Assembly: GCA_035491815.1 (NCBI GenBank) | Contig: DATJKA010000047.1 | Coordinates: 12,496-76,495 of the forward strand | Source of the DNA: Gemmatimonadales bacterium | GTDB lineage: Bacteria; Gemmatimonadota; Gemmatimonadetes; Gemmatimonadales; GWC2-71-9 | Direction: 5' to 3' | DNA: 64,000 nt | Shown: positions 889 to 17,214 of the stretch, piece by piece | Numbering within the stretch: the stretch's first letter is position 1 | Layout of the letters: the number at the start of each line of letters is the position of its first letter | Notes under the pieces: generated by a model | What the model was told of the DNA's origin: nothing | The model's input: only the letters and a program-made list of their open reading frames with translations | The model's database searches: none | Translations under genes and position numbers: made by a program

Positions 889-2622
889 GTGGCGGCCGGA
901 CGCGACGAGCTGAACCGGATCAACGTCTTTCCCGTGCCCGACGGCGACACCGGCACGAACATGTGCCTGACGCTGCGCGCCGTCGCCGGCGCGCTGCGCG
1001 ATCTCGGAGACGGCGACGCACCGCTCCCCCTCCCCGACGTCGCCGAAACGATGGCGCAGGCCAGCGTGCGCGGCGCGCGCGGCAACTCCGGCATGATGCT
1101 GTCGCAATTCCTGCTCGGCTTCCGTGAAGGCATCGGCCAGCGGCTGCGCATCAGCGCCCGCGAGCTCGCCCATGCCATCAGCATCGGCTTCGAGCGGCTG
1201 CGCTCCTCGCTGGACGAGCCGATGGAAGGCACGATTCTCACCGTGGCACGCGAGGCCGCCGAAGAAGCGGGGAATGCGCGCGGCGAGTCGGACCTCCGGG
1301 TCTTCATGAGCCGCATCGTCAATCGCGCCGAGGTCGCGTTGGCGCGCACACCCGAGCTGCTCGCCGCGCTGAAAAGCGCGGGCGTCGTGGATGCCGGGGC
1401 CAAGGGGTTCGTGCGGCTGCTCGACGGCGTCAAGCGTCTCATCGACGAGGGCCACATCGCCGAAGGCGCCGTCGATCGGATGGGGGCGACGTCCAACGCC
1501 GCCGCCCTGACCGACGTCGAGTCCGACCGCGACTACCGCTACTGCACGGAGCTGATGATCCGCTCCGCGTCTCTGCCCGATGCGGCCGACGTCCGCCGCG
1601 CGCTCCGGGCGCACGGCGCTTCGATCGTCGTGCTGTCGACGGGCGACCTCCTCAAAGCCCACATTCACACCGATGCGCCGGACGCCGTCTTCGCGCTTGC
1701 CGCGAGCTGGGGCACGCTCGAATCGACCAAGGCCGACGACATGCGCGCCCAGCACCAGGCGCTGCAGACGCGCCGGCCGATCGCCTTTGTGAGCGATACC
1801 GCCTGCGACTTGCCGGACGAGCTGGTGCTCCAGTACGACGTCGGGCTCGTCCCGATGCAGCTGATCGTCGACGACCGGGCGTACCGCGACCGCCTCGAGC
1901 TTTCGCCGGGCGAGTTCTTCCGCCGCATGCGAGCCGGGTTGGACGCCAGCACTTCTCAGCCGGCGCCCCAGGCATTCACAGATGCCTACCGGGATGCCGC
2001 ACGTGCCGGCGACCACGTCATCGCCGTGGTCGTATCGAGCGCCCTGTCCGGGACACACGGTAACGCGGAAGCCGCGGCGAAGCGCTTCGACGGCAAGCGC
2101 GTCACCGTGGTCGACAGCCGCAGCGCCTCCCTGGGCGAGGGCCTCCTGGTGATACGTGGCGTAGAGCTTGCTGCAGCCGGATGGGAGCGTGAGGCGATCG
2201 TGCGCGAGCTCGAACGGGTGCGCGGGCAATCGGGAGGCTTCTTTACGGTGGACAACTTCGAGCGGCTGGTCCGCTCCGGGCGCGTGGGCCGCGGCAAGGC
2301 CTGGCTCGGGACCAAGCTCAATCTCAAGCCGGTCATGGCGCTTACTATGGAAGGCCGGATCGAGCCGGTGGGCCGAGCGCGCGGGCGCGAGGCGGCCCGG
2401 CGCCGCGTGCTCGAGCTGCTCGACAAGGCCCTGACGCCCCGTCCTCGCACCCTGCGGATGGGCGTCGCGCATGGCGACATCCCCGAATTCGCAGAAGCGT
2501 TACGGCTTGAACTCGTGTCGCGCTACCGACCCATGCAGTGTTTGGTGACCCCGATCACCCCGGTGATCGCGGCGCACGCCGGGATCGGCGCCTGGGGAGT
2601 GTTCTACCAGAATGAAGACTGA
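889..2622 (+). CDS. DhaL/DAK2-domain protein fused to a DegV domain (FakA-N plus FakB-like)
   Basis: Contains the DAK2 motif NVFPVPDGDTGTNM, a FakA/YloV-type middle domain (YRYCTELMI...KAHIHTD) and a C-terminal DegV domain (IAFVSDTACDLP, STSQPAP). GTG 889 is the first canonical start, but homology continues upstream to about 823 (see finding). Confidence 0.85.
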   Translation: MAAGRDELNRINVFPVPDGDTGTNMCLTLRAVAGALRDLGDGDAPLPLPDVAETMAQASVRGARGNSGMMLSQFLLGFREGIGQRLRISARELAHAISIGFERLRSSLDEPMEGTILTVAREAAEEAGNARGESDLRVFMSRIVNRAEVALARTPELLAALKSAGVVDAGAKGFVRLLDGVKRLIDEGHIAEGAVDRMGATSNAAALTDVESDRDYRYCTELMIRSASLPDAADVRRALRAHGASIVVLSTGDLLKAHIHTDAPDAVFALAASWGTLESTKADDMRAQHQALQTRRPIAFVSDTACDLPDELVLQYDVGLVPMQLIVDDRAYRDRLELSPGEFFRRMRAGLDASTSQPAPQAFTDAYRDAARAGDHVIAVVVSSALSGTHGNAEAAAKRFDGKRVTVVDSRSASLGEGLLVIRGVELAAAGWEREAIVRELERVRGQSGGFFTVDNFERLVRSGRVGRGKAWLGTKLNLKPVMALTMEGRIEPVGRARGREAARRRVLELLDKALTPRPRTLRMGVAHGDIPEFAEALRLELVSRYRPMQCLVTPITPVIAAHAGIGAWGVFYQNED

Positions 2623-2956
2623 GCTCTCACAGGTTGTGAACGCGTTAATGGATCGCAAGGCCGTAGATCCGGTAGTATTGGATCTACGCGGCCTGTGCTC
2701 GGCCACCGACTATTTCGTGATCGTGTCGGGCACGTCCGACGCGCATGTGCGGGGCATGGCGGATCATCTGGTCGCCGCGCTCGCGCCGGAGGGGATCGAG
2801 CCGCATCATGTGGAAGGGCTCGCGCAGGGTCGCTGGGTCTTGCTCGACTACGTTGATTTCGTGGTGCACGTGTTTCATCCGGAGCTCAGGGAGTTCTACC
2901 AGCTCGAGCGCTTGTGGGGGGACGCTCCCGTGGTCGCTGGAGACTCGAAAGGCTAG
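2612..2956 (+). CDS. rsfS: ribosome silencing factor RsfS (iojap family)
   Basis: 114 aa with KAVDPVVLDLRGLCSATDYFVIVSGTSDAHVRGMADH and DYVDFVVHVFHPELREFYQLERLW, both typical of RsfS. It overlaps the previous gene by 11 nt. Confidence 0.9.
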   Translation: MKTELSQVVNALMDRKAVDPVVLDLRGLCSATDYFVIVSGTSDAHVRGMADHLVAALAPEGIEPHHVEGLAQGRWVLLDYVDFVVHVFHPELREFYQLERLWGDAPVVAGDSKG

Positions 2957-2962
2957 GGACGT

Positions 2963-5900
2963 ATGCAACGCATGACGCGTTCGATCCTCTTCGCCGCACT
3001 CGCGCTGCTTGTGGCACCGTCGCTCTCCGCCCAGTACTTCGGGAAGAACAAAGTTCAGTACACGAACTTCAAGTTCCAGACGATTCAGACCGAACACTTC
3101 GACATCTACTACTATCCCGACGAGCGCGGCGGCGCGCTGGACGCGGCCCGCATGGCCGAGCGCGCGTACGCGCGGTTGTCGCGCATCCTGCATCACCAGT
3201 TCCAGAGTCGGAAGCCGATCATCCTGTATGCGTCGCAGTCCGACTTCCAACAGACCAACGTCGTCGATGCGGGGGGCGAAGGTCTCGGCGGCGTCACGGA
3301 GTTTTACAAGCATCGCGCCGTGATGCCCTTTACCGGCTCCTACGCCGAGTTCGAGCACGTGCTGCAGCACGAGATGGTGCACCAGTTCCAGTACGATGTG
3401 TTCAGCCGCGGCCGCCCCGGCGCCGGCGTGCAGACGCTCATGAACGTGAATCCGCCGCTCTGGTTCATGGAGGGCATGGCGGAGTATCTGTCGCTCGGCC
3501 CGATCAATCCGGAGACGGCGATGTGGCTGCGCGACGCCGCGCTCAACGGGCACTTGCCGTCCATCGAAGAGATGTCGGAAGATCCCAGCATCTTCCCCTA
3601 TCGGTTCGGTCATGGATTGTGGGCCTACATCGGTGAGAAATGGGGCGACGACGTCATCGGGGAAATCCTGCAGAGCTCGGTGAGCTCCGGTATCGACGCG
3701 GCATTCAAGCGCGCGACCGGTCGCTCGCTGGAGCAGCTCTCGGACGACTGGCGCGACGCGATCCAGACGACGTTCCTGCCGCAACTCGGGGACCACTATC
3801 GCGCGCGCCGCATTGCGCAGCCGACGCTGACGGAGCGCCGCTCCAACGGGCGGGTCTTCCTGGCCCCCGCACTGACGCCGGACGGCCGGAGCATCGCGTT
3901 CTTCGGCGACGAGGGCGGGTTCTTCATCGACCTCTGGCTCGCCGATGCCGAGACGGGACGCGTGAAGCAGCGGCTCGTGAAATCCACGCTCAACAACAAT
4001 TACGAGAGCCTGCGGTTCATCAACTCGGCCGGCGCTTTCTCGCCCGACGGGCGGTTTTTCGCGATCGCGGCAAAGCGGAAGAACCGCGACGACCTCGTGA
4101 TTCTCGACGTCAAGAACGACCGCGAGGAGCGCCGCATCCAGGTGGGCCTCTCGGGCCTGCAGACGCCGCAGTGGTCGCCGGACGGTCAGCAGCTCGTGTT
4201 CACCGGATTCCACAACGGCTTCACCGATCTCTTCATCATCAATCGCGACGGCACAGGCCTGCGGCGGCTCACCGACGACAAGTATGCCGACTTGCACCCC
4301 GCATGGTCGCCGGACGGCAAGACGATCGCCTTCGTGACCGATCGGGGCGGCGAAACCGACTTCGATCTGCTCCGCTTCGGCAATCTCCGCGTCGCGCTCT
4401 TTCATCTCGACACCGGGACGATGGAGCTGCTCGGCCACATGGAAGTCGGGAAGAACATCAACCCCGTGTGGGCACCCGACGGAAAGTCCTTGGCGTTCGT
4501 CTCCGACCGCACCGGCGTCGCGAACCTCTTCTTGTATGACTTCGCGGACGGCGAGATCTATCAGCTGACCAACATGTTCACCGGCGTGCAGGGCATCACC
4601 CCGCTGTCACCGGTGTTGAGCTGGGCGCCGCAGGCCGATCGGATGGCGTTCGTCTATTACGAGGACGGCCAGTACAGCGTGTATTCGCTGGAGAATCCGC
4701 GCTCGCTCAAGCGCGCGCCGTATCGTGGCCCGAGCACCGCTCCCGTCGTCACGCTGCTCGAGGGCGAAGCGCGCGACACGCTGCTCCCGGCGCCGACGCC
4801 CACCGGCACGGCAGCGACGGGTGGTGGCGCCGCGGTTGCGAACGCCGGTCAGTCCGCGTCGTTCTACCGGTCCGCCGGAGGCTTCCGACCGTCGGCCACC
4901 CCCGCCCCCGCCGAATCGTCGGCGGTGGCGCCGACGGTGACCGTGCGCCAGCTCCTCGACTCTGCGTCGCTCGCGTTGCCGGACACGGCAGAGTTCTCGT
5001 TCAAGCCATATCGGGTGCGCTTCACCGCCGATTACGTCGTCCGTCCGACGGTGGGTTATGAGCGCGACAACTTCGGCCGCGGTTTCTTCGGCGGCACGGC
5101 GATCGCGCTGTCCGACATCCTCGGCAACCACGCGCTCGTGCTCGCCGGATCGATCAACGGCCGCATCAGCGAAGCACAGGTCCTCGGCCTCTACGTCAAT
5201 CAGACGCATCGTCTGAGCTGGGCCGGGGGTTTCTCGCAGGATCCGTTGTACTTCTACGGCGGCAGCGACTGGTCGCGCGCCGAAGATCCGAGCAGCCCCG
5301 GCGATAGCCTCGACGTCTTCTCGACGCGCATCCGCCGCTTCGTGATCCGCGATGCGTTCGTCGAGTCGCAGTATCCGTTCAGCCGATTCAATCGCATCGA
5401 GCTGGGCTTCCACGCGGTGAACATCGCCGAAGCAACGCTCGCGCTGCAGACGCTCTACGATGCGAGCGGCAATCCCGTCGACGAGCGCCTCGTCACCGGT
5501 AGCGGACCGTCGTCGTCGTACATCCAGCCGTCGATCGCGCACGTGCACGACAACGCGTTGTTCGGCTGGGTCGGGCCGTTTACCGGCGGCCGCTCGCGGC
5601 TGTCGGTGTCACCGGCGATCGGCTCGTGGAAATTCACGGCGGGCCTCTTCGATTACCGCCGCTACCTGTTCGCTCGGCCGTTCACGCTCGCGTTCCGGGG
5701 CTTGATGTTCGGTCGCTTCGGCCGCGACGCCGATCGCTTCCCGGTGTTCCTGGGCAGCACGGAGCTCATCCGCGGCTACACGGCCGGCTCGATCCGCAAC
5801 AACGAGTGCGTCGCCGATCCGACGAATACGAACACGGCGACGTGCGCGCAGCTCGATCAGCTGATCGGCTCCAAGATCGCCGTCGGGAACGTCGAGCTTC

Positions 5901-6193
5901 GCTTCCCGCTCACCCGCAGCCTCGTGCTCGGCTTCCTGCCCGTCGGCTTCCCGCCGATCGAGGGCGCGGTGTTCTACGACATCGGAATGGCGTGGAACGA
6001 CAACAGCATCGTGAAGTGGAATCGCGGGCCGACCGAGGACCCGGAGCTCGTGCGGACGCCGCTGCGCAGCTGGGGCGGATCGATTCGCGCCAACGTCTTC
6101 GGGCTGATGATCATGCGGCTCGATTACACCAAGCCGCTCGACCGGCCCCACAAGCGGTCGTATTGGACCATTAGTTTAGGTCCGACGTTCTAA
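2963..6193 (+). CDS. secreted fusion: HExxH metallopeptidase-like domain + PD40/TolB-type beta-propeller repeats + C-terminal Omp85/surface-antigen beta-barrel
   Basis: Signal peptide MQRMTRSILFAALALLVAPSLSAQ. HEMVH motif at nt 3368-3382. Repeated PD40 motifs (TPDGRSIAF, SPDGRFFA, WSPDGQQLVF, WSPDGKTIAFVTDR, WAPDGKSLAFVSDR). The C-terminus carries LIRGYTAGS, VELRFPL, GAVFYDIGMAW, LRLDYTKPL and a terminal Phe, as in Omp85 barrels. Confidence 0.85.
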   Translation: MQRMTRSILFAALALLVAPSLSAQYFGKNKVQYTNFKFQTIQTEHFDIYYYPDERGGALDAARMAERAYARLSRILHHQFQSRKPIILYASQSDFQQTNVVDAGGEGLGGVTEFYKHRAVMPFTGSYAEFEHVLQHEMVHQFQYDVFSRGRPGAGVQTLMNVNPPLWFMEGMAEYLSLGPINPETAMWLRDAALNGHLPSIEEMSEDPSIFPYRFGHGLWAYIGEKWGDDVIGEILQSSVSSGIDAAFKRATGRSLEQLSDDWRDAIQTTFLPQLGDHYRARRIAQPTLTERRSNGRVFLAPALTPDGRSIAFFGDEGGFFIDLWLADAETGRVKQRLVKSTLNNNYESLRFINSAGAFSPDGRFFAIAAKRKNRDDLVILDVKNDREERRIQVGLSGLQTPQWSPDGQQLVFTGFHNGFTDLFIINRDGTGLRRLTDDKYADLHPAWSPDGKTIAFVTDRGGETDFDLLRFGNLRVALFHLDTGTMELLGHMEVGKNINPVWAPDGKSLAFVSDRTGVANLFLYDFADGEIYQLTNMFTGVQGITPLSPVLSWAPQADRMAFVYYEDGQYSVYSLENPRSLKRAPYRGPSTAPVVTLLEGEARDTLLPAPTPTGTAATGGGAAVANAGQSASFYRSAGGFRPSATPAPAESSAVAPTVTVRQLLDSASLALPDTAEFSFKPYRVRFTADYVVRPTVGYERDNFGRGFFGGTAIALSDILGNHALVLAGSINGRISEAQVLGLYVNQTHRLSWAGGFSQDPLYFYGGSDWSRAEDPSSPGDSLDVFSTRIRRFVIRDAFVESQYPFSRFNRIELGFHAVNIAEATLALQTLYDASGNPVDERLVTGSGPSSSYIQPSIAHVHDNALFGWVGPFTGGRSRLSVSPAIGSWKFTAGLFDYRRYLFARPFTLAFRGLMFGRFGRDADRFPVFLGSTELIRGYTAGSIRNNECVADPTNTNTATCAQLDQLIGSKIAVGNVELRFPLTRSLVLGFLPVGFPPIEGAVFYDIGMAWNDNSIVKWNRGPTEDPELVRTPLRSWGGSIRANVFGLMIMRLDYTKPLDRPHKRSYWTISLGPTF

Positions 6194-6218
6194 CTCCGCT
6201 TCGCTAAAACAGTTGCCT

Positions 6219-6255
6219 TGGCCTCGCCGGTTGTCTATCTTGTCCGGCGAGGCCA
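6219..6255 (+). terminator. perfect 12-bp stem / 13-nt loop hairpin followed by TTT (terminator or SD-sequestering hairpin)
   Basis: TGGCCTCGCCGG (6219-6230) pairs perfectly with CCGGCGAGGCCA (6244-6255), followed by TTTG. It sits 26 nt after the stop of the 1076-aa gene. The 3' arm contains the GAGG that would serve TTG 6257. Confidence 0.4.
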
Positions 6256-6256
6256 T

Positions 6257-7642
6257 TTGCCTACCACCCGCTTCCTTCTGTTCGCCGCCGTCACGCTGTG
6301 GGGCTGCGGATCCCGAGCGCCGGGAGCCGTGTCCTCTCAAGCTCAGTCGCCTCAACAAGTTAGCCAAGCACAGATCCAGGCCCGCACCCCCGGCGTAGCC
6401 ATTCGGCTGGCCGCCAAAGGCGGGACACCGATGCTCTATCGCCTCCCGCGCCTGACGGCGGTCGAGGGGGTCCTGCGCGGCAAGCTGCCCCCCGTCGAGC
6501 GGGTGGTCGGCCTGGACCCCGAGTCCGAGTTCTTGTTTGTCACGACCGCCAAGCACGAACTGCTCACGCTCGATCTCGGCAGCGGACGCGTCGACACGGT
6601 CGCGACGAACGTGCGCCAGGCGGCGCTCGGCCCCGACGGCACGCTGTACGCCGTCGACTCGCTGCGGCACGTCATCTCGCTGTCGCGCCGCACGCGATTT
6701 ACGTGGCCGCAGGCGCTGACGGCGATGCCGCGCGATCTCTTCGGCGCCGCCGATCAACATCTCGTCGGCGTCATTCCGCAGGACAAGCTCCTCGTCGCGG
6801 CGGCCGACCAACCCCCGACGGTTCATCCAATCGCGACCGGCGGTGACGTCGCGGCGTCGCGGTGGGGCGACCTCGTCGCCGTCGCCAGTGACTCCGGGGT
6901 GACGCTCTACGATCCCGTCGGCCGGCGCGAGCCGGCGTTCGTGCGGCTCGACGATGCACCGCGTGCGCTCGCGTTTTCGCCGTCGGGCCACCGCATCTAC
7001 GTCGCGCGCCGCAGCGTGCCGGGCCTCGCAGTGATCGACCGCTTCGATCGCAAGGAGCTGGACGGCGTGGCGCTCCCGGGACCCGTCGCCGCGCTCCGGC
7101 TCGATCCGCTCGGCCGCTGGCTGCTCGCGCGCCCGGCCGTGGGCGATTCGGCATGGATCGTCGATCTGCCGATCAAGCGGCACACGGGAATCATTCCGAC
7201 GGAATGGCAATCCGATCTGCCGACGGTTTCGCCCGACGGCATGCTGATCTATCGTCGCGGCAAGGACGTGATTTCCGCACGACCGGATTCGTTGAACGAC
7301 GTGGGTAAGGTCACGAACGGCGCGGCGGATCTCTGGGTGCTCACGACCTGGCTGCCGCGCGGCGTGCCGTCGAGCGTCGCCAGCACGACCGCGGCCGACA
7401 GCGCGGGCGCCGGCGCGGAAGGCCCGCTCTACGTGCAGGTCTCGACGTCGCAGAATCCGGAGTGGTCCGGCCATCTGGCCGACGATCTGACGCGCGCCGG
7501 GCTCGCCGCACGCGTGTTGCCGCCGCAACATCCCGACGACGGCTATCGCGTCGTCCTCGGTCCCTATGCGACGCGCGAGCAGGCGGAAGCAACCGGCCGG
7601 CGGCTCGGACGTCCGTTCTGGATCTACCAGCCCGGCCAGTGA
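6257..7642 (+). CDS. lipoprotein with YVTN-type beta-propeller repeats and a C-terminal SPOR domain
   Basis: A TTG 6257 start gives MPTTRFLLFAAVTLWGC, a lipobox-like LWGC; the alternative TTG 6218 would put the hairpin inside the CDS. Propeller-like motifs include GPDGTLYAVD and SPSGHRIYVARRSVPGLAVIDRF. The C-terminal LYVQVSTSQNPEWSG...YRVVLGPYATREQAEA matches the SPOR pattern. Confidence 0.7.
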   Translation: MPTTRFLLFAAVTLWGCGSRAPGAVSSQAQSPQQVSQAQIQARTPGVAIRLAAKGGTPMLYRLPRLTAVEGVLRGKLPPVERVVGLDPESEFLFVTTAKHELLTLDLGSGRVDTVATNVRQAALGPDGTLYAVDSLRHVISLSRRTRFTWPQALTAMPRDLFGAADQHLVGVIPQDKLLVAAADQPPTVHPIATGGDVAASRWGDLVAVASDSGVTLYDPVGRREPAFVRLDDAPRALAFSPSGHRIYVARRSVPGLAVIDRFDRKELDGVALPGPVAALRLDPLGRWLLARPAVGDSAWIVDLPIKRHTGIIPTEWQSDLPTVSPDGMLIYRRGKDVISARPDSLNDVGKVTNGAADLWVLTTWLPRGVPSSVASTTAADSAGAGAEGPLYVQVSTSQNPEWSGHLADDLTRAGLAARVLPPQHPDDGYRVVLGPYATREQAEATGRRLGRPFWIYQPGQ

Positions 7643-8949
7643 GCACCGTGCGCCAGCTGCCGCTCTCGCGGCTCGGTCACCTGGTGCCGCCGCTGCTTGA
7701 GGGCGCGGCGCTGGTCGCCCTCGCGCCGCTGAGCGACGATCTCGCGTGGGCCGCGAAGGCCGCGTGGGACATCGCGCGCATTGCCGCGCGCGACGGGCGG
7801 AAGGTCGCGCTTGTCGATCTCGAGCTCGAGCATCCCACGTTGCACACCGTCGTCGGACTCGCGACGACCGAAGGCATCGTGGACGCATTCGAATACGGCG
7901 TGTCGTTGACCAAGGCCGCGCATGAGGTGCACGGCGTCTTCCTGATTCCCACCGGTACGGACACCGCGAAGGCCTCGGAGTTGTACGCCCATTCGCGCTG
8001 GCGGAAGCTGCAGGCGGGATTTCGCTCCGAAGGCGCGCTGCTGCTCGTGTTCATTCGGCCCGGCGCGCTCGCGCAATTCGCGGCCGATCCCGACGGTGTC
8101 ATCGTGCTCGCGCCCGAAGGAGTGACCGGCACGCTCGCGCTGCGGCGCGACCTCCCGCTGCTCGGTGTCGTGCGCGACCGCTGGCTCCCCTCGGGGCCGC
8201 AGGCCCGCGTGTCGGTGCCGCTGCCCGCACAGCCGCTGCCGCCGCCTCGGCCCGGCTTCCCCGTGCCGATCGACGTCGAGCCGCGGCGCCGTACCGGTGT
8301 CCGGGTCGTGCTGGCGGCGGGCCTCGTCATCGCCGTGGGCCTGGGAGGATGGACCCTCTTCGCCCGAGCCAGGGAGTCGGGTGAAGTGGCCGGCGGATTC
8401 GTGGCACCGCCGGCCGCTCCGCCGACTCCCGCCGCGTCGACGTCGTCGTCTGCAGTCGCCACATCCTCCACCAACCATCACGCGCCGCCGGCCGCTTCCC
8501 TCGACACACTCGGATGGACCGTCCAGCTCGCGGCCTACGCGTCGCTCGACAAGGCGCTCGCGCAAGCAGATCAGTTGGCCGCGGATGCCGGCGTGCCGAC
8601 GCTCGTGACGCCGGTGGCGCAGAACGAGCACGGTCGCGTGTGGTATCGCGTCCTGGCCGGCTCGTACGCGACGCGGTCCGCCGCCGCCGAGGCGCGCGCC
8701 GGCTGGTGGCAGCGCGGCGTCGCGGCGGAAGGCATCGGCGATCTGCTGCAGGCGCCGTACTCGTACCACGCGGCTGCGGATGCGTCACTCGACATGCTGC
8801 GGCGCCGCGGGTTGCCCGCCGTGCGCTGGACGAACGGCGCCATTCTGATGGGCGCGTTCGAAACCCGCGATCAGGCGGCGTTGACCCAAGCCGCACTCAA
8901 GCGCGCCGGCGTGCGCGCGAACCTACTCCCTCGCATGGGGACACCATGA
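7639..8949 (+). CDS. bitopic membrane protein: degenerate MinD/BY-kinase-like P-loop domain + TM helix + two SPOR domains
   Basis: GTG 7639 overlaps the upstream TGA (GTGA). The N-domain aligns by eye to BY-kinase/MinD (KVALVDLELEHPTLHTVVGL..EGIVDAF, GVFLIPTGTD, LLLVFIRP, DGVIVLAP) but lacks a Walker A lysine. The TM helix is VRVVLAAGLVIAVGLGGWTLF. SPOR-like segments are GWTVQLAAYASLDKA...WYRVLAGSYATRSAAAEA and a second copy. The longer ORF from 7462 is an out-of-frame overlap artefact. Confidence 0.7.
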   Translation: MSTVRQLPLSRLGHLVPPLLEGAALVALAPLSDDLAWAAKAAWDIARIAARDGRKVALVDLELEHPTLHTVVGLATTEGIVDAFEYGVSLTKAAHEVHGVFLIPTGTDTAKASELYAHSRWRKLQAGFRSEGALLLVFIRPGALAQFAADPDGVIVLAPEGVTGTLALRRDLPLLGVVRDRWLPSGPQARVSVPLPAQPLPPPRPGFPVPIDVEPRRRTGVRVVLAAGLVIAVGLGGWTLFARARESGEVAGGFVAPPAAPPTPAASTSSSAVATSSTNHHAPPAASLDTLGWTVQLAAYASLDKALAQADQLAADAGVPTLVTPVAQNEHGRVWYRVLAGSYATRSAAAEARAGWWQRGVAAEGIGDLLQAPYSYHAAADASLDMLRRRGLPAVRWTNGAILMGAFETRDQAALTQAALKRAGVRANLLPRMGTP

Positions 8950-11900
8950 GACTGAGCAGGCTCGAGCTCTCGGGCTTCAAATCGTTCGCGGGATCGGTGG
9001 AGCTGCCCTTCGATCAGGGCGTCACCGCCATCGTTGGCCCGAACGGCTGCGGCAAATCGAACATCTCCGACGCGGTCCGCTGGGTGCTCGGCGAGCAGTC
9101 GCCGCGGCTGTTGCGCGGCGGCAAGATGGAAGACGTGATCTTCCAGGGCTCGACCGGCCGCCGCCCCGTCAACGTCGCGGAAGTCTCGCTCGTCTTCGAC
9201 AACTCCGACGGCACCCTGCCGATCGCGTATCAGGAAGTCGTCGTGACGCGGCGGTTGTCGCGCTCGGGCCAGAGCGATTACCTCATCAATCGCTCGCCGG
9301 TGCGGCTCCGCGACGTCCAGGATCTGCTGCGCGGGACGGGCCTGGGTGCCGACGCGGCCGTCGTGATGGAAGCCAAGATGATCGAGGCGCTGCTCTCCGA
9401 GAAAGCCGAAGAGCGGCGCGCGCTGTTCGAGGAAGCTGCCGGCATTGGGCTGTATCGCAACCGGAAAGAGAGCACCGAACGGCGTCTCGAGGAGACCGCC
9501 GCGGACCTCGCGCGGCTCGAAGACCTGGTCGCCGAAGTGCAGACGCAGGTCCGCAGTCTCGCGCGCCAGCGCGGCCGCGCCGAGCGGTACGGCAAGATGA
9601 TCGAGGAGCGCTTTGGCATCGCGATGACGCTGGTGCGGCGCGAGCTCGAAGACTTCGAGCTGTCGCTTGGCGCGTTGACCGTCCGCGCGCGCGAGCTGGC
9701 CGAGCAGCTGCCCGCTGCCCGCGCACGGCTCGAGGATGCCGAGCAGCAGCGCGAGGCGCGAGTGCAAGCGCGGCACACGGCGGAGGCGCGCCGCACCGAA
9801 GTCGAGCGCCGGCTGGCCGACGCCAAGCTCGAGGTCGGGCGATTGGAGAGCGACCTCGCCCTGGCCGCCGAACGCCTGAGCAATGCAGCGCAACGCCGCC
9901 AGACCGCGGCCGACGAGCGCGTGCAGGGTGAACGGCGCGCCGCACAGGCGGAGCGCGAGCACGCCGCGGCGGCGGCGGAACGCTCGGCCGCCGAGCGCGA
10001 TCTCGCCGCCGTGCAAACCGAGCTCGGCGCGCGCACGGGAGAGGAAGACACCGTCCGCGGGCGGCTGACCGCAGAGCGGATCGCGGTGCGGGACCTGGAG
10101 GAAGGACTGCAGCGCCGCGCCGAAACGGCCCGCGCGCTCGAGATCGAGAGCGGCGCGCTCGAGCGGGAGCGCGGCGAGCTGAAGGAGCAGCTGACCCAGG
10201 CAACGACGGAGCGCGACGCCCGCGATACGGCGGCGCGTGGAGCGGCGCGGGACGCCGAGGCGGCCGCGCAGCGCGTCCATCACGATGCCGAGGCCGCCGT
10301 CCACGCTGTCGAGGCGCTGCAGCACGCGCGCCGGCACGTGGCGGCACTGCAGGAGCAGGAGATGAGCGCGCGCTCCGCCCGCCGCCAAGCCGAAGCGGCA
10401 TTGGCACAGCTCGAGGCGCGGCGTGACGCGCTGACCGAGCTCGATCGCGAGCACGTGGGACTCGCGCCCGCGGCGCAGGCGCTACTCAAGGCGCGCGCGC
10501 AATTCGGCGACGGCGTCCTCGGCCCGCTCGCCGACTTCGTGCGCACCAGTCGTCGCGACGCGGAGCTGGCCGAGCGGCTGCTCGGTGAATGGCTGCATGC
10601 CGTGCTCGTGCGCGACGCGTCCGAGATCGACAGGATTCGGGCGTGGCACGCCGAGACGCAGCCGGGACCACTCGTGCTGCTCCCGTGCGTCCCCGGCCCG
10701 CGGCTCGGCGCCGACGGCCATCCGCTCAAGGACGAGCTGCGCGTCGATGGAGCGGCGGCCGCCTGGGTGCGCGCGCTGCTCGCCGGCCACGAAGTCCTCG
10801 CCGCGGGCGCGCTGCGGCGCGCGAATGGCGCCGTGTTCCTCGACTCCACCGCTCCGGCGGCCGGCGGCCCCCTCCAGCGCCGCGCAGAGCTCGAAGCCCT
10901 CGAGAAGGACGTGCGTGACGCGCAGAGCAATCGTGAGCGCGCCCATGCGACCGAAGAGACGACGGTGCGCGAGCTCGCCGCCGCGGAAGCGACGCTGACC
11001 GCCGCCGGCCAGGCCGCTGAGCACGCCCGCCGTGCCGAGCTCGAGGCGGGAGCCGAAAAGGGCGAAGCCGATCGCGGCCTGATCCACGCGCGCCGCGAAG
11101 CCGAGGAGTCGGCCGCGCGGGTCGAGCGGTTGACGCGGCGACTCGGCGAGGTCGAGACCCGGCTTGGCGCGTTGCAGGTCGAGCTTCAGGAGCGCGAGCT
11201 CGATCGCGTGCGCGCCGCCGAGCAGCTCGGCGCCGAGCGGGCGGGGCTCGCCGATCTCGAGGCGCAACAGGAGGCGGCCCGCGAGCAGCGCGTCCGGTGG
11301 CAGGTGGAAGCCGCGCAAGTCGAAGCGCGCCACACCGCGGCCTCCGAGCGTGCCGCGCGCGCCGACGCCGACGCGCGCGCCTCGCGCGAGCAGGCCACCG
11401 CACGGGCCGAGGAGATCGCGCGCATCGAGCGGGAATCGGCGACGCTCACCACGCAGCGCGCGCAGTGGGAAGACACGCTGCAGGAGCGGCGGCTCGCGCT
11501 GGTCGAGCTGGAGGCCGCGGCCCAGGACGCCGAAACGAACGTCGGCTTGACGGACGCCGATCTGGGCCAGGCCGAAGGCGCGCTCGATCAGGCGCGCAAG
11601 GCGCTCGCCGCCCTGGGCGAAGAGGAGCACCGGCTCAAGCTCGAGCAAACGGAGGTCGAAGGCCGTAAGCGCGGCCTGGTCGAGCGCGTCGAAACCGAGT
11701 GGCGCAAGCCGCTCGACACCCTGCTCGCCGATGCACCGGAGGTTCCCGGCGACATCGAGTGGCTGCGCCAGGAAAACGAGCGGCTGCGCGGCGCGATCGA
11801 CGCCGTCGGTCCCGTGAACGCCCTTGCCGTCGAGGAGCACGCCGAGGAGCAAAAGCGGCTCGACTTCCTGATGACCCAGCGCGACGATCTCGTGGCGGCG

Positions 11901-12413
11901 CGCAGCTCGCTCCAGCAGGCGGCGCGGGAGATCGATCAAACGGCCAAGACGCTGTTCCTCGAATCGTTCGGCAAAGTCCGCGAGCACTTCCGGTCGGTGT
12001 TCCAAACGTTGTTCGGCGGCGGTGAATGCGATGTGCGGCTCGCGAACGAGGACGAGCCGCTCGAGAGCGAGATCGAGATCCACGCCGCGCCGCGCGGCAA
12101 GCGCACCCAGCGCATTCACCTGCTGTCCTCGGGCGAGCGCACGCTGGTCGCCGTGTCGCTCCTGTTTGCCATCTTCCTCGCGAAGCCGAGCCCGTTCTGC
12201 CTGCTCGACGAGGTGGATGCGCCGCTGGACGACGCCAACGTCGGCCGCTACGTCCGGCTGCTCACGCAGTTCAAGGACTCGACACAGTTCATCGTGATCA
12301 CGCATAACCCGCGCACGATGCAGGCGGCCGACGCCGTGTACGGCGTGACGATGCAGGAGCCCGGCGTCTCGACGATCGTCGGCGTGCGGCTCGGCCAAAT
12401 GGAGACCGTCTAA
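8946..12413 (+). CDS. smc: chromosome segregation protein SMC
   Basis: [43 protein letters not shown] (Walker A head), a long Ala/Glu/Arg coiled coil, and a C-terminal [18 protein letters not shown]...[13 protein letters not shown]. ATG 8946 overlaps the upstream TGA (ATGA). The Arg-rich extension back to 8514 is rejected. Confidence 0.93.
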   Translation: [1155 protein letters not shown]

Positions 12414-12430
12414 CAGCGGAGTTGGGACTC

Positions 12431-12458
12431 GTCCCCGGTCCCTCGTCCCCCGTCCCTC
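12431..12458. repeat. tandem heptamer array (GTCCCYN)x4 immediately upstream of ATG 12461
   Basis: The sequence reads gtccccg gtccctc gtccccc gtccctc. The complementary strand is a G3+N(1-7) x4 (G-quadruplex-type) motif. It lies in the smc/S8-peptidase intergenic gap. Confidence 0.6.
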
Positions 12459-12460
12459 CT

Positions 12461-14713
12461 ATGCGACGGTTCCTCTGGCTCCTCCTGCTGCCCGCCGGGT
12501 TGGCAGCGCAACAACCCACCGTGTCCCCGCCCCTCTCACGGCTCGTGCATCGCGTGCCGGACACCACCGTGACCGTGTGGCTGTTCGCGCGCCCGCGCGT
12601 CTCGCTCGACGCCCTGAGCCGACGCCTGGCCGCCGCCGGCGCGCATGTGCGGGTCGCGAGCCGCTGGCTCCATGCCGTCAGCGCTGACGTTTCCGCGAGG
12701 ACGCTCGGCGTGCTGCTCACCGATCGCGACCTCAGGCACGTCCAGCCGCTCGGCCGATTCCGCGTACCAACGAATCGCTTGTCGGATGCAGCGCTCGTCG
12801 CGCCGTCGCCCGGCTCTGTCGCCGACTCCTGCCCTGCCGGCGGCGATCCGGTATACGGCCCGTCCGAGATGCCTTATCGCCGCCTGAATCTGCGGCCGCT
12901 GAGCGATCGCGGGCTGCGCGGCGCCGGCGTGCGCGTCGGCATCTTCGACTCGGGCTTCGACACGCAAAACGCGGCGTTCAGCGGCGTGACGATTCGGGCG
13001 CAGCACGACTTCGTGTTCAACGACAGCATCGTTCGCGACGAGGCCGGGAAGGATCAGGCCGGCGCGCAATTCCACGGTACCGCCGTGTGGTCACTGTTCG
13101 CCGGCAATCTCGCGGGTCGGCTGCGCGGGATCGCGCCCGACGCGACCTATCTCCTCGCGAAGACCGAGGACGTGCGGAGCGAAACGCGCGTCGAAGAAGA
13201 CAACTACGTTGCGGCGCTCGAGTGGGCCGATTCAATCGGGGTCGACATCGTCTCCTCGAGCCTCGCGTATCTCGTGTTCGACAACGGCTTCAGCTACGCG
13301 CCCGCGGACCTCAACGGCGACGTGGCGGTGACGACGGTGGCGGTCGACGCGGCGGCAAAGCGCGGCATCACCGTCGTGACGGCAGCAAGCAACAACGGTC
13401 CGGCGTTCCGCACGCTGTGGACCCCGGCGGACGCGGATTCCGACCTCGCGATCGGCGCCGAGGATTCGCTGGGCAACATCGCGAACTTCTCGAGCCGCGG
13501 CCCCACCGCCGACGGCCGGCTGAAGCCCGATTTCACCGCACCGGGGATCGCGGTGTGCGTGCTGACCGGCCCCGGCACGCTTCTGCGCGAAGCCGGTACG
13601 TCGTTCGCGACGCCGCTGACGGCCGCCGGCATCGTGCTCCTCAAAAGTCTGTTCCCGAGTCTCGGACCGATCGCGATCCGGCAGACGCTGCGCGCCACGG
13701 CATCGCATCGCTCCGCACCCGATTCGACGTTCGGCTGGGGCCGGCCCGATTTCGGCGCCGCGGCGTCGTTCGCCGGTCTCGTGCCGATCAGCCCCGTGAA
13801 CAGCCCGCTGAGCACCGTCACACCGACGTTCGCGTGGACCCAGGGCGCGCTGCCCTCGCCCGTGACGTTCCGGCTGCGCGTCGCAGGTGACAGCCAATTC
13901 CTATCGCTCATTGCCGACACCGTGGTGGGCTCGGCGACGAGCGCCACGCTGGCGCGGCCGCTCAAGGGAACGCGCATGTTCTGGCGCGTCGATGGACGGA
14001 GCGACGCGGGGGATACGGCCAGCACCGGCGTGGTGGGGCCGCTCGTCGTGCCGCCCTGGGCGACGATGCTCGTCTACAGCAGCCCGGCGGGCAGCGTGAC
14101 CGACACGGCGGAGCCGACGTTCCGGTGGTCGCCCATCCCGGTCGACTCTCCGCCCGGCCCGTTCACGTACGATCTCATCGTGCAGCGCGCCGCCACGAAT
14201 CTCACGGAATTCGGAATCGGCGGTCTGCGGGATACGGTCTTCACGCTGACGCAGCCGCTCGAGCGCAACACCGCCTATCACTGGTCGCTGGTCGTCCATG
14301 CCGGCGCGGACACGAGCCTGGTGAGGAGCCAGGGGTCGTTCCTGGTCGTCGACGGCGGCATGCCGACGGCGACGTTGCTCTATCAGAATTTTCCGAATCC
14401 GTTTCCCGTCCCGGGGCGCGACTCGACGTGCCTCTGGTTCGACATCGCGTCGGCCGGGCTCGTGGAGCTCGACATTCTCGATTTGCGCGGCAACCGGGTT
14501 CGGCGTTTCGTTCCGGGACCGGACTTCCCCGCGATTCTGCCGGCCGGGCGGTATGGCCGCGGCTACGCGGGCGGCTCGGGACTCTGCGATCCCCGGCTCA
14601 TGTGGGATGGGCGCGCCGATGACGGCCACCCGTTGCCTGCAGGCGTGTATCTCGCCAAGCTGAAGGCACCAGGACTGCTCGTGTTCAAGCGCATCGTCTT
14701 TCGCGGAAAGTGA
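12461..14713 (+). CDS. S8 subtilisin-family serine peptidase with a T9SS-type/FlgD-Ig-like C-terminal domain
   Basis: Signal peptide MRRFLWLLLLPAGLAAQQ. Catalytic triad contexts are GIFDSGFD (Asp), HGTAVWS (His) and GTSFATPLTAAG (Ser). The C-terminus carries LYQNFPNPFP...GVYLAKL, typical of T9SS type-A sorting / FlgD-Ig domains. The ORF could extend to 12422. Confidence 0.85.
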   Translation: MRRFLWLLLLPAGLAAQQPTVSPPLSRLVHRVPDTTVTVWLFARPRVSLDALSRRLAAAGAHVRVASRWLHAVSADVSARTLGVLLTDRDLRHVQPLGRFRVPTNRLSDAALVAPSPGSVADSCPAGGDPVYGPSEMPYRRLNLRPLSDRGLRGAGVRVGIFDSGFDTQNAAFSGVTIRAQHDFVFNDSIVRDEAGKDQAGAQFHGTAVWSLFAGNLAGRLRGIAPDATYLLAKTEDVRSETRVEEDNYVAALEWADSIGVDIVSSSLAYLVFDNGFSYAPADLNGDVAVTTVAVDAAAKRGITVVTAASNNGPAFRTLWTPADADSDLAIGAEDSLGNIANFSSRGPTADGRLKPDFTAPGIAVCVLTGPGTLLREAGTSFATPLTAAGIVLLKSLFPSLGPIAIRQTLRATASHRSAPDSTFGWGRPDFGAAASFAGLVPISPVNSPLSTVTPTFAWTQGALPSPVTFRLRVAGDSQFLSLIADTVVGSATSATLARPLKGTRMFWRVDGRSDAGDTASTGVVGPLVVPPWATMLVYSSPAGSVTDTAEPTFRWSPIPVDSPPGPFTYDLIVQRAATNLTEFGIGGLRDTVFTLTQPLERNTAYHWSLVVHAGADTSLVRSQGSFLVVDGGMPTATLLYQNFPNPFPVPGRDSTCLWFDIASAGLVELDILDLRGNRVRRFVPGPDFPAILPAGRYGRGYAGGSGLCDPRLMWDGRADDGHPLPAGVYLAKLKAPGLLVFKRIVFRGK

Positions 14714-15489
14714 GTATGGACCTCGTCACGGTCGGCACCGGAACCGTCGCTCCATCGGCAGCTCGCACCGCGCCCTGCCATTGGGTGACGCGCGGCGACC
14801 TGCGCGTGCTGCTCGACTGCGGCGCGGGCTCGCTGCATCGCCTCGCGCAGTTCGGGCTGCCGTGGCAGCACGTGACGCACGTGATCGTGACGCACTTCCA
14901 TCCCGACCATTGGGGCGAGCTGCCGATGCTGGTCTACGCCCTGAAGTACACGACCGAGCCGGCGCGCCGCGAGCCGTTCGTCATTCTCGGCCCGCCCGGC
15001 GTCGTGCAGCTCCTCCGGACGCTCGCCGAGGGTTACGGCGACTGGCTGCTCGATCCCGGTTTCCCGATCGGCATCCTCGACGTCCGCGACGGCGAGCCGT
15101 TCCCGCTGAACGCCGAGGTCAATCTCGAGACGTTCCCCGTTCCGCACACGACCGAAAGCGTCGCGGTCTCGCTGGTGGCGCCGGAAGGGCGTCTCGTCTA
15201 TACCGGCGATACCGGCCCCAGCTCTGAGCTGGCGCGGTGGGCGGCGGGCTGCGATTTGCTCTTGGCGGAGTGCTCGCTGCCGGAAGAGCGGGCCATGGAC
15301 ATCCACCTCACGCCCCAGCAAGCGGGAGACCTGGCGAAGGAGGCGGGTGCCAAGCGTCTAGTCTTGACGCACTTCTATCCCCCTGTAGAAACTTCGGACC
15401 CGGCAAAACTTGCCGGCACTCGCTTTCGCGGGCCGGTCTCGGCGGCGAAAGACGGCGACCGCTTCACCATCGGTGATGGGAGACGCTAG
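14710..15489 (+). CDS. MBL-fold metallo-hydrolase (RNase Z/BN-like)
   Basis: Motifs [24 protein letters not shown] and LVLTHF. GTG 14710 overlaps the upstream TGA; ATG 14716 is an alternative start. Confidence 0.8.
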
Positions 15490-15491
15490 TC

Positions 15492-16532
15492 GTGCTGATC
15501 GTCATGCGGCATGGAGCTTCGCGCGATGAAGTCGACAAGGTCATCTCCGTCATCGAGGAGCTGGGCTATCAGGCGCAGCTCATGCCCGGCGCGCAACGGA
15601 CGGCGGTCGGTCTCGTCGGCAACGACGGCCGCGTGGACGCCTCGCGCCTCGAAGGCCTGCCCGGCGTCGCCGAAGTCATCCATGTCTCGCAGCCCTACAA
15701 GCAGGTCAGCCGCGAGTGGAAATCCGAGAACACCCTGGTGCGGCTGCCCGGTGGCGTCACGTTTGGTGGCACCGAGGTGGTGGCGATCGCGGGGCCGTGC
15801 TCGGTGGAGAACGAGCGCCAGATCATCGAGGCGGCGCGCCAGGTAAAGGAAGCGGGGGCCGTCGTCCTCCGCGGCGGCGCGTGGAAGCCACGCAGCTCGC
15901 CCTACTCGTTCCAGGGGCTGGGCAAGCCTGGTCTCCGGCTCCTCGCCAAGGCACGCGAAGAGACCGGTCTCCTGATCTGCACCGAGGCGATGGACGAAAC
16001 GGGACTCGGCTGGGTCGCCGAGAGCGCCGACATCGTGCAGCTCGGAGCGCGCAACATGCAGAACTTCTCGCTGCTCAAGGTCGCCGGCCGCTGCGGCAAG
16101 CCGGTCCTCTTGAAGCGCGGCATCAGCGCCACGGTCCAAGAGCTGCTCCTCTCGGCCGAGTACCTCCTGGCCGAGGGCAACCACGATGTCATTCTGTGCG
16201 AGCGCGGCGTCCGCAGCTTCGACACCGCGACGCGCAATCTCTTCGACCTGACGGCGATTCCGGTGGTGCACAAGCTGTCGCACCTGCCGATCATCGCCGA
16301 TCCGTCGCACGGCACCGGCCTGCGCGACAAGGTCATTCCGATGGCGCGCGCGGCCGTGGCGGCCGGCGCCGACGGCATCATGGTCGAAGTCCATCCGAAT
16401 CCCGAAGACGCGCTCTCGGACGGCGCGCAATCGCTGTTTCCCGATCAGTTCAAGGAGCTGATGCGGGAAGTGCGGATCATCGCCGAGGCCATCGGCCGTC
16501 GGGTGGCGGAGCCGGCTGCGGTGGGAGCGTAA
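15492..16532 (+). CDS. aroF: 3-deoxy-7-phosphoheptulonate (DAHP) synthase, type I-beta with N-terminal ferredoxin-like regulatory domain
   Basis: 346 aa. The N-terminal [26 protein letters not shown] resembles Thermotoga-type DAHPS. The core carries [32 protein letters not shown] and IADPSHGTG. Confidence 0.88.
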
Positions 16533-16533
16533 G

Positions 16534-17214
16534 ATGAGCAGTCGGGCGGTTAAGCGGTTAAGCGGCTGGATGAGTCTGCTCCTGCTAACCACCCAACCGC
16601 CCCACCGCTCAACCGCCCAGGATCCTGGCCAAATCCTTGATCGCGCCTCGGCATCCTACGATACCGTGAAGACGCTCCAGGCCGACTTCATTCAAATCGT
16701 CGAGAACCCGATGCTCGGCGACCCCGACACGACGCGCGGCACGCTGTTCGAGCAGCGGCCGAGCTATTTCGCGATGCGGTTCACGGAGCCGAGGAACGAC
16801 CGCGTCGTCGCCGACGGAAAAAAGCTCTGGCTCTACACGCCCAGCACGACGCCGGGACAGGTGATTCGCTCCGACATCCCCGGGACCGGCACGACCGGCC
16901 CCAATCTGATCGGGCAATTCATCGAGCACCCGCGCGAGCGCTACAGCGCGCGCTATGTGCGCGGCGATTCACTCGTCGATGGTCCCGTGGACGTGATCAG
17001 CCTGACGCCGCGATCCGCGGCGGGGGACTTCCCCTACTCCGAAGCGACGGTGTGGATTGCGAAGCGCGACGGCCTGCTGCGGCGCGTGGACATCGTGGAG
17101 ACGTCCGGTCAGCGCCGCACGATCATCCTGCGGAACCTTTCGGTGAATCACCCGATTGCCGCCCGCGAATTCCGGTTTTCCCCGACGGGCGGATTACGGG
17201 TGGTAGATCAGTAG
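16534..17214 (+). CDS. lolA: outer-membrane lipoprotein carrier protein LolA-like
   Basis: Signal peptide ending STAQ. LQADFIQIVENPMLG...GTLFEQRPSYFAMRF...GKKLWLYTP matches the LolA family pattern. Confidence 0.75.
   Translation: MSSRAVKRLSGWMSLLLLTTQPPHRSTAQDPGQILDRASASYDTVKTLQADFIQIVENPMLGDPDTTRGTLFEQRPSYFAMRFTEPRNDRVVADGKKLWLYTPSTTPGQVIRSDIPGTGTTGPNLIGQFIEHPRERYSARYVRGDSLVDGPVDVISLTPRSAAGDFPYSEATVWIAKRDGLLRRVDIVETSGQRRTIILRNLSVNHPIAAREFRFSPTGGLRVVDQ
16544..16618 (+). repeat. imperfect inverted pair of octamer x3 arrays bracketing the LolA signal-peptide core
   Basis: gggcggtt aagcggtt aagcggct (16544-16567) faces aaccgccc caccgctc aaccgccc (16595-16618). Of 24 positions, 19 can pair, and the outer 8 bp are perfect. 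Confidence 0.6.

Follow-up and report, generated by a model that had tools for sequence, protein, structure and literature searches.

The gene for the chromosome-segregation ATPase SMC (smc) in a Gemmatimonadales bacterium is joined, by a 4-nucleotide (nt) start/stop overlap, to an upstream gene, here called ORF2, that encodes a predicted membrane-anchored protein with a catalytically dead tyrosine-kinase-like domain. We analyzed this locus in a 64,000-nt stretch of contig DATJKA010000047.1 (hereafter the window), in which a further upstream gene, ORF1, encodes a predicted lipoprotein. ORF2 lies next to smc throughout the Gemmatimonadota loci that we could inspect, and the overlap between the two genes persists in nearly all of them. 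Based on these observations, we propose that ORF2 may be a scaffold whose dead-kinase domain engages the chromosome-organizing machinery at the membrane, and which is targeted in most lineages by peptidoglycan-binding SPOR domains and made together with SMC. We assign this reading, which draws on sequence comparison and structure prediction, a probability of roughly 40%.

Three overlapping genes encode a predicted lipoprotein, a predicted bitopic membrane protein, and SMC

The window has a G+C content of 67%, and its proteins match metagenome-assembled genomes labeled Gemmatimonadales. The three genes lie head to tail on its plus strand. Their features are as follows.

6218-7642, plus strand: ORF1, predicted lipoprotein of 474 residues (TTG start) that joins a beta-propeller to SPOR at its C-terminus
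6218-6307, plus strand: ORF1 signal peptide with lipobox-like LWGC (Cys30), from conservation in 31 homologues
6395-7345, plus strand: ORF1 YVTN-like beta-propeller, residues ~60-376, from structure prediction, Foldseek, and a profile match to 1l0q
7418-7627, plus strand: ORF1 SPOR domain, from PF05036 (27.3 bits) and the modeled fold of residues 404-470
7639-7642, plus strand: GTGA overlap of the ORF1 stop and ORF2 start, read from the sequence and in 80 of 83 related loci
7639-8949, plus strand: ORF2, predicted bitopic inner-membrane protein of 436 residues in which a transmembrane helix separates a cytoplasmic pseudokinase domain from tandem SPOR domains
7639-8193, plus strand: ORF2 cytoplasmic domain, residues 1-185, a predicted P-loop-NTPase fold like that of bacterial tyrosine (BY) kinases and ParA, without the P-loop
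8299-8364, plus strand: ORF2 transmembrane helix, residues 221-242 (VRVVLAAGLVIAVGLGGWTLFA), from the sequence and a hydrophobic block in 53 family members
8512-8697, plus strand: ORF2 SPOR domain 1, PF05036 (52.3 bits, E = 7e-14)
8698-8946, plus strand: ORF2 second, degenerate SPOR-like domain, a weak match in a region conserved across the family
8946-8949, plus strand: ATGA overlap of the ORF2 stop and smc start, read from the sequence and in 79 of 80 loci plus 10 of 12 further metagenome loci
8946-12413, plus strand: smc, canonical chromosome-segregation SMC ATPase, 1,155 residues

ORF2 opens at the GTG at 7639, within which the TGA of ORF1 (7640-7642) begins; likewise, smc opens at the ATG at 8946, which gives a canonical SMC N-terminus and runs into the TGA of ORF2 (8947-8949). 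A first-pass annotation of this DNA had chosen these starts and read the genes as a propeller lipoprotein, a bitopic membrane protein, both ending in SPOR domains, and SMC, translationally coupled through the two overlaps. The starts, overlaps, and domain calls survived our analysis: the overlaps are real and conserved among relatives, the homologues begin at the overlap positions, and the domain calls are borne out by the profile and structure matches given below. The longest open reading frames would start at 7462 for ORF2 and at 8514 for smc; we rejected both, because the extensions are Arg-rich off-frame translation.

The smc product matches the full-length equivalog hidden Markov model TIGR02168 with 868.8 bits (cut-off 567.35) and SMC_N with 236 bits, and both the Walker A motif GPNGCGKS and the C-terminal LSSGE... 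motif can be read in its translation. Its hinge scores 20.1 bits against PF06470, for which the gathering score is 22.5, and the hinge match is stronger in homologues. We ruled out a defense-type SMC, as in Wadjet or Lamassu, by the equivalog match and the housekeeping context.

ORF2 is directly upstream of smc across Gemmatimonadota

About 95 related loci were informative, and all of those with a taxon label belong to Gemmatimonadota. A scan of GTDB species genomes returned 80 loci with Gemmatimonadota-type labels, save one labeled "uncultured bacterium"; L090 was left out, as its contig stops just after the ORF2 homologue. In every informative locus an ORF2 homologue stands directly upstream of smc: 73 loci from GTDB species, 12 metagenome loci of a group that we call lineage B, and L084, L086, L087, L088, L089, and L109. 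Across these loci, identity drops to 40-50% for SMC and to ~30-45% for ORF2. The neighborhood is thus conserved far beyond the source genome.

The surroundings of the pair take five forms, namely, RsfS/ORF2-SMC, RsfS/tail-anchored ORF2-SMC, RsfS/ORF1-ORF2-SMC, up1076-ORF1-ORF2-SMC-(S8)-MBL, and the last of these without S8 (up1076 is a 1,076-residue protein described below, S8 a peptidase, and MBL a metallo-beta-lactamase-fold hydrolase). GTDB loci keep the up1076-ORF1-ORF2-SMC-(S8 peptidase)-MBL hydrolase order wherever the contig continues, with S8 variably absent or truncated. Lineage B, represented by a protein labeled Longimicrobiaceae and a 5.78-Mb contig, reads RsfS, ORF2, SMC, and 3-deoxy-D-arabino-heptulosonate 7-phosphate (DAHP) synthase; it retains the 4-nt ORF2/smc overlap and has neither ORF1 nor up1076. 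In lineage C (L087), up1076 and an ORF1-like gene precede ORF2 and SMC. In lineage D (L088 and L089), in which ORF2 is tail anchored, ORF1 is missing and the 4-nt overlap with smc is kept. Finally, lineage E (L109) reads RsfS, ORF1, ORF2, SMC, and DAHP synthase, with both 4-nt overlaps and without up1076, S8, or MBL. A metagenome scan with the alignment of the tail-anchored group (A7) returned no relatives. Although both flanks have been remodeled repeatedly, no insertion separates ORF2 from smc in any locus seen.

ORF2 combines a transmembrane helix with SPOR domains in most lineages

ORF2 has a single hydrophobic transmembrane segment, residues 221-242, which is preceded by PRRR and is conserved across the family. 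The SPOR domain that follows (residues 292-353) scores 52.3 bits against the PF05036 threshold of 21, and a C-terminal SPOR-like repeat, scanned alone, gives 15.5 bits (E = 0.023), under the Pfam threshold. Two SPOR stretches are also visible in the lineage B homologues. In lineage D, by contrast, a linker and a C-terminal transmembrane helix are all that follows the pseudokinase domain, SPOR being absent. SPOR domains bind amidase-processed peptidoglycan at the septum (see also PMC7822825).

The topology predicted for ORF2 is shared with DamX, FtsN, and DedD of Escherichia coli: the N-terminus is cytoplasmic, a single helix spans the membrane, and a low-complexity linker in the periplasm leads to SPOR at the C-terminus. 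SPOR-driven septal targeting would be expected for ORF2 as for these proteins. JGI annotators label ORF2 homologues "cell division septation protein DedD". The FtsN model TIGR02223 matches ORF2 through the SPOR region only, with 25.9 bits against a cut-off of 107.65. Unlike the E. coli proteins, however, ORF2 carries a 185-residue globular cytoplasmic pseudokinase domain and two SPOR domains, and the E. coli genes are linked neither to smc nor to mukB.

The first-pass annotation had described a triad in which two septal-peptidoglycan binders are hard-wired to smc. This description stands for ORF2 and smc, which are adjacent in every informative locus, and not for ORF1, which is absent from lineages B and D. 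Its SPOR component holds in most lineages and fails in the tail-anchored one, which lacks SPOR and still shows the 4-nt overlap. Because ORF1 is missing in lineages B and D and SPOR is missing in D, what stays constant is SMC together with a membrane-anchored pseudokinase rather than with two SPOR proteins.

The 4-nt overlap is conserved at the ORF2/smc junction and carries a codon cost

We measured the ORF2/smc junction in 80 loci and found the 4-nt overlap in 79, the remaining one being 1 nt. In the 12 further metagenome loci of lineage B, the overlap is 4 nt in 10 and 1 nt in 1, and the last has a 3-nt gap; overall, ~95% of the ~95 loci have the 4-nt form. The sole exceptions are L087 (at 3491), L092 (at 7542), and L107 (at 2260-2264). 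Two of these are 1-nt overlaps (TAGTG and TAATG) with CGT or CGG as the second smc codon, and the third is the 3-nt gap. At the ORF1/ORF2 junction, 80 of 83 related loci have a start that allows a 4-nt overlap; for the other three (L009, L035, and L066) no junction was obtained, probably owing to frameshifts or in-frame stop codons inside their tblastn matches.

In four loci, the overlap sets this junction apart. Among 63 same-strand junctions in L084, L086, L088, and L089, the ORF2/smc junctions are the only ones that overlap by 4 nt (0 of the 59 others). A 4-nt overlap requires an A after the ATG, so that the second codon of smc must be a rare AGA, AGG, or AAR. The window smc indeed has AGA there, one of only two AGA codons among 378 Arg codons in six genes, and AGA, AGG, AAG, or AAA occupies this position in 83 of 85 distinct start contexts. 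The genome-typical CGN appears only in the two loci with a 1-nt overlap. A Shine-Dalgarno core is found 5' of smc in just 16 of the 85 contexts. Taken together, the specificity of the overlap in these four loci, its codon cost, and the few Shine-Dalgarno cores speak for maintenance of the overlap as such; translation of smc may rely on reinitiation after ORF2.

These data also bear on an alternative that we regard as a substantial possibility, somewhat short of even odds: that the genes are only co-expressed, ORF2 (with ORF1) being DamX/FtsN/RlpA-like septal proteins in a growth-linked housekeeping operon that never meet SMC, and the overlap merely economizing on expression signals. The pair sits in a syntenic housekeeping block (rpsF-rpsR-DUF2232-rplI-rsfS ... 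smc ... DAHP synthase-dnaX-ybaB-recR) that extends across lineages and contains further tight junctions, and both the DedD label and the order of cytoplasmic domain, helix, linker, and SPOR fit proteins of the DamX/FtsN type. Co-expression alone accounts less well for flanks that were repeatedly remodeled by insertions while the ORF2/smc junction never was, or for an overlap retained at a cost in codon usage. The tail-anchored lineage, still coupled to smc without SPOR, is likewise hard to square with a purely periplasmic or septal-peptidoglycan role.

Several observations weigh against the scaffold proposal. The loci come from one phylum and share a long housekeeping block, so inherited synteny explains part of the conservation. 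In other phyla, smc is co-transcribed with functionally unrelated genes (rnc and ftsY). The 4-nt class is the commonest class of gene overlap and occurs at other Gemmatimonadales junctions, e.g., S8/MBL at 14710-14713 and FakA/RsfS in L109. Our scan of positions 2500-17500 for sigma-70 promoters and intrinsic terminators gave nothing above shuffled expectation and was uninformative on transcription units. The absence of SPOR from one lineage means that septal targeting cannot be the universal mechanism. Moreover, the functional link between ORF2 and SMC, although plausible, is one of genomic context, and contact between the two proteins is hypothetical.

The cytoplasmic domain of ORF2 resembles BY kinases and ParA and lacks their catalytic motifs

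What, then, could the cytoplasmic domain contribute? For the ORF2 domain, Pfam gave no family even at E = 10, and NCBIfam gave only sub-threshold matches, to tyrosine autokinase and KGGVGR-type ATPase models; the CbiA/ParA Pfam model gave just E = 0.15, on one homologue. AlphaFold2 (AF2), supplied with an alignment of 48 sequences, produced a confident alpha/beta model (predicted local distance difference test [pLDDT] score of 84.5; predicted template-modeling [TM] score, 0.84). The top Foldseek matches of this model are the kinase domains of Wzc, CapB, Etk, BceF, and VpsO (E = 6e-9; TM ~0.73), with TMq values of 0.72-0.75 against 3la6, 4jmp, 3cio, 6z0p, and 6u1q. Soj/ParA is also among the matches, at 27-28% identity, and the family profile finds Wzc by sequence with E = 1.4e-6.

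We next compared the motifs on which BY kinases depend. The Walker A motif GxxxxGK[ST] is gone: Wzc GVSPSIG(K)T aligns with "daaedraWa" in the family, with no Gly-rich loop, and the Walker A Lys and Thr positions are W37 and A38. W37 occurs in every sequence of alignments A2 and A4, and A38 in every sequence of A2; both are consensus residues in the 53-member alignment A1. In Walker A' (DxDxR), the first Asp (D60) alone is kept and the second Asp and the Arg are lost, the window reading VDLELE. The Walker B Asp is missing, since the region of strand 134-138 (ALLLVFIRP) contains none. The ring-forming EX2RX2R motif has likewise disappeared (Wzc IEAIRSLR aligns with the nonconserved "paseelpa"), and a Pro-rich linker stands after the domain in place of the Tyr cluster. 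The deviant Walker A KGGxxGK[ST] was not found in the window ORF2, in the 53 aligned members, or in the N-termini of 150 listed family representatives, which have the degenerate P-loop region in common. The family comprises at least 995 clusters at 50% identity (E <= 1e-3). We rejected ORF2 as an active ParA or BY kinase, given the missing catalytic motifs. A kinase fold combined with the loss of these motifs indicates that the domain is, as judged from sequence and model, a BY-kinase/ParA-fold pseudoenzyme, or pseudokinase.

The most conserved residues of the pseudokinase are W37, D60, G79, D82, F84, R120-W121, and G127-F128 (window residues 37, 60, 79-84, 118-121, and 127-128 of the family alignment). 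W37 and D60 align in Wzc with the former nucleotide-binding motifs Walker A and Walker A', and for this reason the pocket may be remodeled rather than abandoned.

Relatives of this domain offer precedents for a scaffold. The domain shares its fold (TM ~0.73) and profile-level sequence homology with the BY kinases Wzc, Etk, CapB, and CpsD, from which it differs in lacking Walker A, the second Asp and Arg of Walker A', the Walker B Asp, EX2RX2R, and the Tyr cluster; in its position N-terminal to the transmembrane helix and SPOR; and in having smc as its genomic partner and no polysaccharide co-polymerase. The BY pseudokinase EcpK acts as a scaffold (PMC12004946), and ORF2, likewise without catalytic residues, may be one too. 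In pneumococcus, the septal BY kinase CpsD interacts with ParB and influences how chromosomes segregate (PMC4574921); ORF2 may similarly connect the septum with chromosome segregation. Together, the two precedents lend support to a scaffold mechanism for ORF2.

The kinase matches would also be compatible with a polysaccharide export or co-polymerase scaffold like EcpK, unrelated to chromosome biology, because the best structure and sequence matches are kinase domains of Wzc, CapB, Etk, BceF, and VpsO and because EcpK sets the precedent for a BY pseudokinase scaffold. We nevertheless give this idea a very slim chance: none of the neighborhoods examined contains genes for a polysaccharide co-polymerase (PCP), Wzx, Wzy, or Wza; the domain order of ORF2, with the kinase-like part N-terminal to the helix and SPOR outside, is the reverse of that of Wzc; and the ring-forming motif and Tyr cluster are missing.

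By analogy with CpsD, which meets ParB at the septum, and with the resemblance of the fold to Soj/ParA as well as BY kinases, the pseudokinase could instead bind ParB, ParA, FtsA, or FtsZ, with smc linked as the ParB-loaded component. ORF2 has the SIMIBI-type alpha/beta fold of ParA, Soj, and MinD, with Soj among the highest-identity Foldseek matches, and the likeness of role would lie where membrane, division site, and chromosome meet. However, ORF2 differs from these proteins in lacking the deviant Walker A and in being anchored by a true transmembrane helix, and without that motif neither ATP-dependent dimerization nor DNA or membrane cycling is expected; the ATP-sandwich dimer features of ParA partners are absent as well. 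The gene is coupled to smc rather than to parAB, and no par, fts, or scp genes (scpA, scpB, parAB, and ftsK) occur among the window proteins scanned. We therefore consider a link through the division or Par machinery improbable.

A working model for ORF2 and SMC

The scaffold proposal can be laid out as follows. The three genes would form one conserved, tightly coupled expression unit with ORF2-smc as its ancestral core, and ORF1 would be a later, lineage-specific periplasmic addition to the module. ORF2 would be a type II bitopic inner-membrane protein with a single-helix anchor, and its N-terminal domain, a catalytically dead descendant of the tyrosine kinase/ParA fold, is probably a protein-binding scaffold. 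In most lineages, two periplasmic SPOR domains would concentrate ORF2 at the constricting septum, on amidase-denuded glycan strands. Given the ATGA overlap and the lack of a conserved upstream Shine-Dalgarno sequence, ribosomes finishing ORF2 most likely reinitiate on smc, by which the two proteins would be produced together and proportionately. The pseudokinase domain would then work with the SMC machinery, binding SMC/ScpAB directly or acting via ParB, as CpsD does, and chromosome organization would be tied to, or regulated at, the membrane or closing septum. A stricter version, in which ORF2 is a new SMC accessory factor of Gemmatimonadota that docks the SMC complex through direct contact or regulates it, usually at the septum, seems to us rather doubtful.

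ORF1 and the genes around the module

ORF1 homologues are 80-94% identical, and their consensus has M where the window has TTG. The N-terminus contains RR...FLLFAAVTLWGC. Across 31 homologues, L27 and C30 never vary, and conservation of W28 and G29 is 90% or more; the Trp at -2 makes for an atypical lipobox. The conservation of residues 1-71, together with the M at position 1 in homologues, supports the TTG start at 6218. A database copy of ORF1 (P0150; 403 residues, 100% identical) begins at Met72 and so loses the signal peptide and lipobox (window 6218-6430).

The AF2 model of ORF1, which is of moderate confidence, shows repeated four-strand blades at residues ~60-376, with a mean pLDDT of 66.6 and residues 158-211 unresolved. 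The best Foldseek match is the YVTN propeller 1l0q (E = 6.5e-11), which is also the sole significant match of the ORF1 profile in the PDB (E = 1.6e-9); no Pfam repeat family was matched. The SPOR domain (residues 401-463) scores 27.3 bits against the PF05036 gathering threshold of 21 and is modeled as beta-alpha-beta-beta-alpha-beta, with strands at 404-411, 431-434, 443-450, and 468-470 and helices at 414-426 and 453-463. ORF1 occurs in lineages A, C, and E. It resembles RlpA, an outer-membrane lipoprotein with a C-terminal SPOR domain, in being a predicted lipoprotein that ends in SPOR, and the SPOR end of RlpA gives a weak NCBIfam match from ORF1; the double-psi beta-barrel (DPBB) lytic-transglycosylase domain of RlpA is replaced in ORF1 by the YVTN-like beta-propeller.

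The 1,076-residue protein up1076 (2963-6193, plus strand) ends 24 nt upstream of ORF1. It joins a weakly matched zincin-like peptidase region at the N-terminus to propeller repeats like those of TolB/PD40 and Tricorn and to an Omp85-type barrel at the C-terminus, and it accompanies ORF1 in the Gemmatimonadales loci and L087 and is missing from lineages B, D, and E. On the 3' side of smc lie the S8 subtilase (12422-14713, plus strand) and the MBL-fold hydrolase (14710-15489, plus strand), with a mutual 4-nt overlap. The hydrolase has a weak Anti-Pycsar Apyc1-like match (25 bits; cut-off 50), and its gene is retained in the many related species in which S8 is absent or truncated.

Farther out, a 577-residue polypeptide (889-2622, plus strand) carries Dak2, a FakA-like middle, and DegV domains. 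This arrangement resembles a FakA-FakB fusion, also present in L001 and L109; these fatty-acid kinase subunits are usually separate. Gene calls in the tail-anchored lineage fuse ribosomal proteins S6 and S18 into a single product of 211-217 residues that contains both Pfam domains (L088, 5367-6002; L089, 1552-2205; L090, 5011-5655), where the other lineages have two genes. Envelope genes nearby encode LolA (16534-17214, plus strand) and a CtpA-like S41/PDZ protease (18061-19701, minus strand), and a 506-residue SpoIID-domain protein (36753-38273, minus strand) may remodel peptidoglycan.

Discussion

A septum-anchored complex with the condensin, as the first-pass annotation had suggested, is an inference from gene order. 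That annotation did not recognize the arrangement as a described one, and in the literature searched we likewise found no description of it or of the ORF2 domain family. The component domains are of known kinds; their combination and the fixed coupling to smc are new.

Linkers between division and chromosome are known elsewhere, including MatP-ZapB-ZapA with MukB, Noc, and SlmA. The concept is the same, a protein bridge from the division apparatus or membrane to chromosome-organizing factors, and the proteins are unrelated to ORF2. To our knowledge, none of MatP-ZapB-ZapA, Noc, and SlmA is SPOR anchored to peptidoglycan or translationally coupled to a condensin gene. The rnc-smc-ftsY operons likewise place smc inside a multigene housekeeping operon, and FtsY, too, is a SIMIBI-class NTPase at the membrane; here, the partner is a different gene, placed upstream of smc and sharing nucleotides with its start codon.

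Coordination of chromosome and septum is understood in few model species, through MatP-ZapB, Noc/SlmA, FtsK, and CpsD-ParB. We know of no partner of canonical SMC-ScpAB that is anchored in the membrane or to peptidoglycan, and the literature searched describes none. A gene pair that overlaps throughout a phylum, at a codon cost and amid reshuffled flanks, offers a concrete candidate for this role that can be put to the test. In addition, our analysis delineates a large domain family, with at least 995 clusters at 50% identity, that is covered by neither Pfam nor NCBIfam models, and the ORF2 family would add a new case of a bacterial tyrosine pseudokinase that serves in something other than polysaccharide export. 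Should the link prove to be mere co-expression, ORF2-smc would still provide a phylum-specific marker and an annotation correction. If the stricter version of the scaffold proposal is true, chromosome compaction or clearing in Gemmatimonadota would be coupled mechanically to the inner membrane and closing septum, with the ATGA overlap fixing the stoichiometry of the two proteins.

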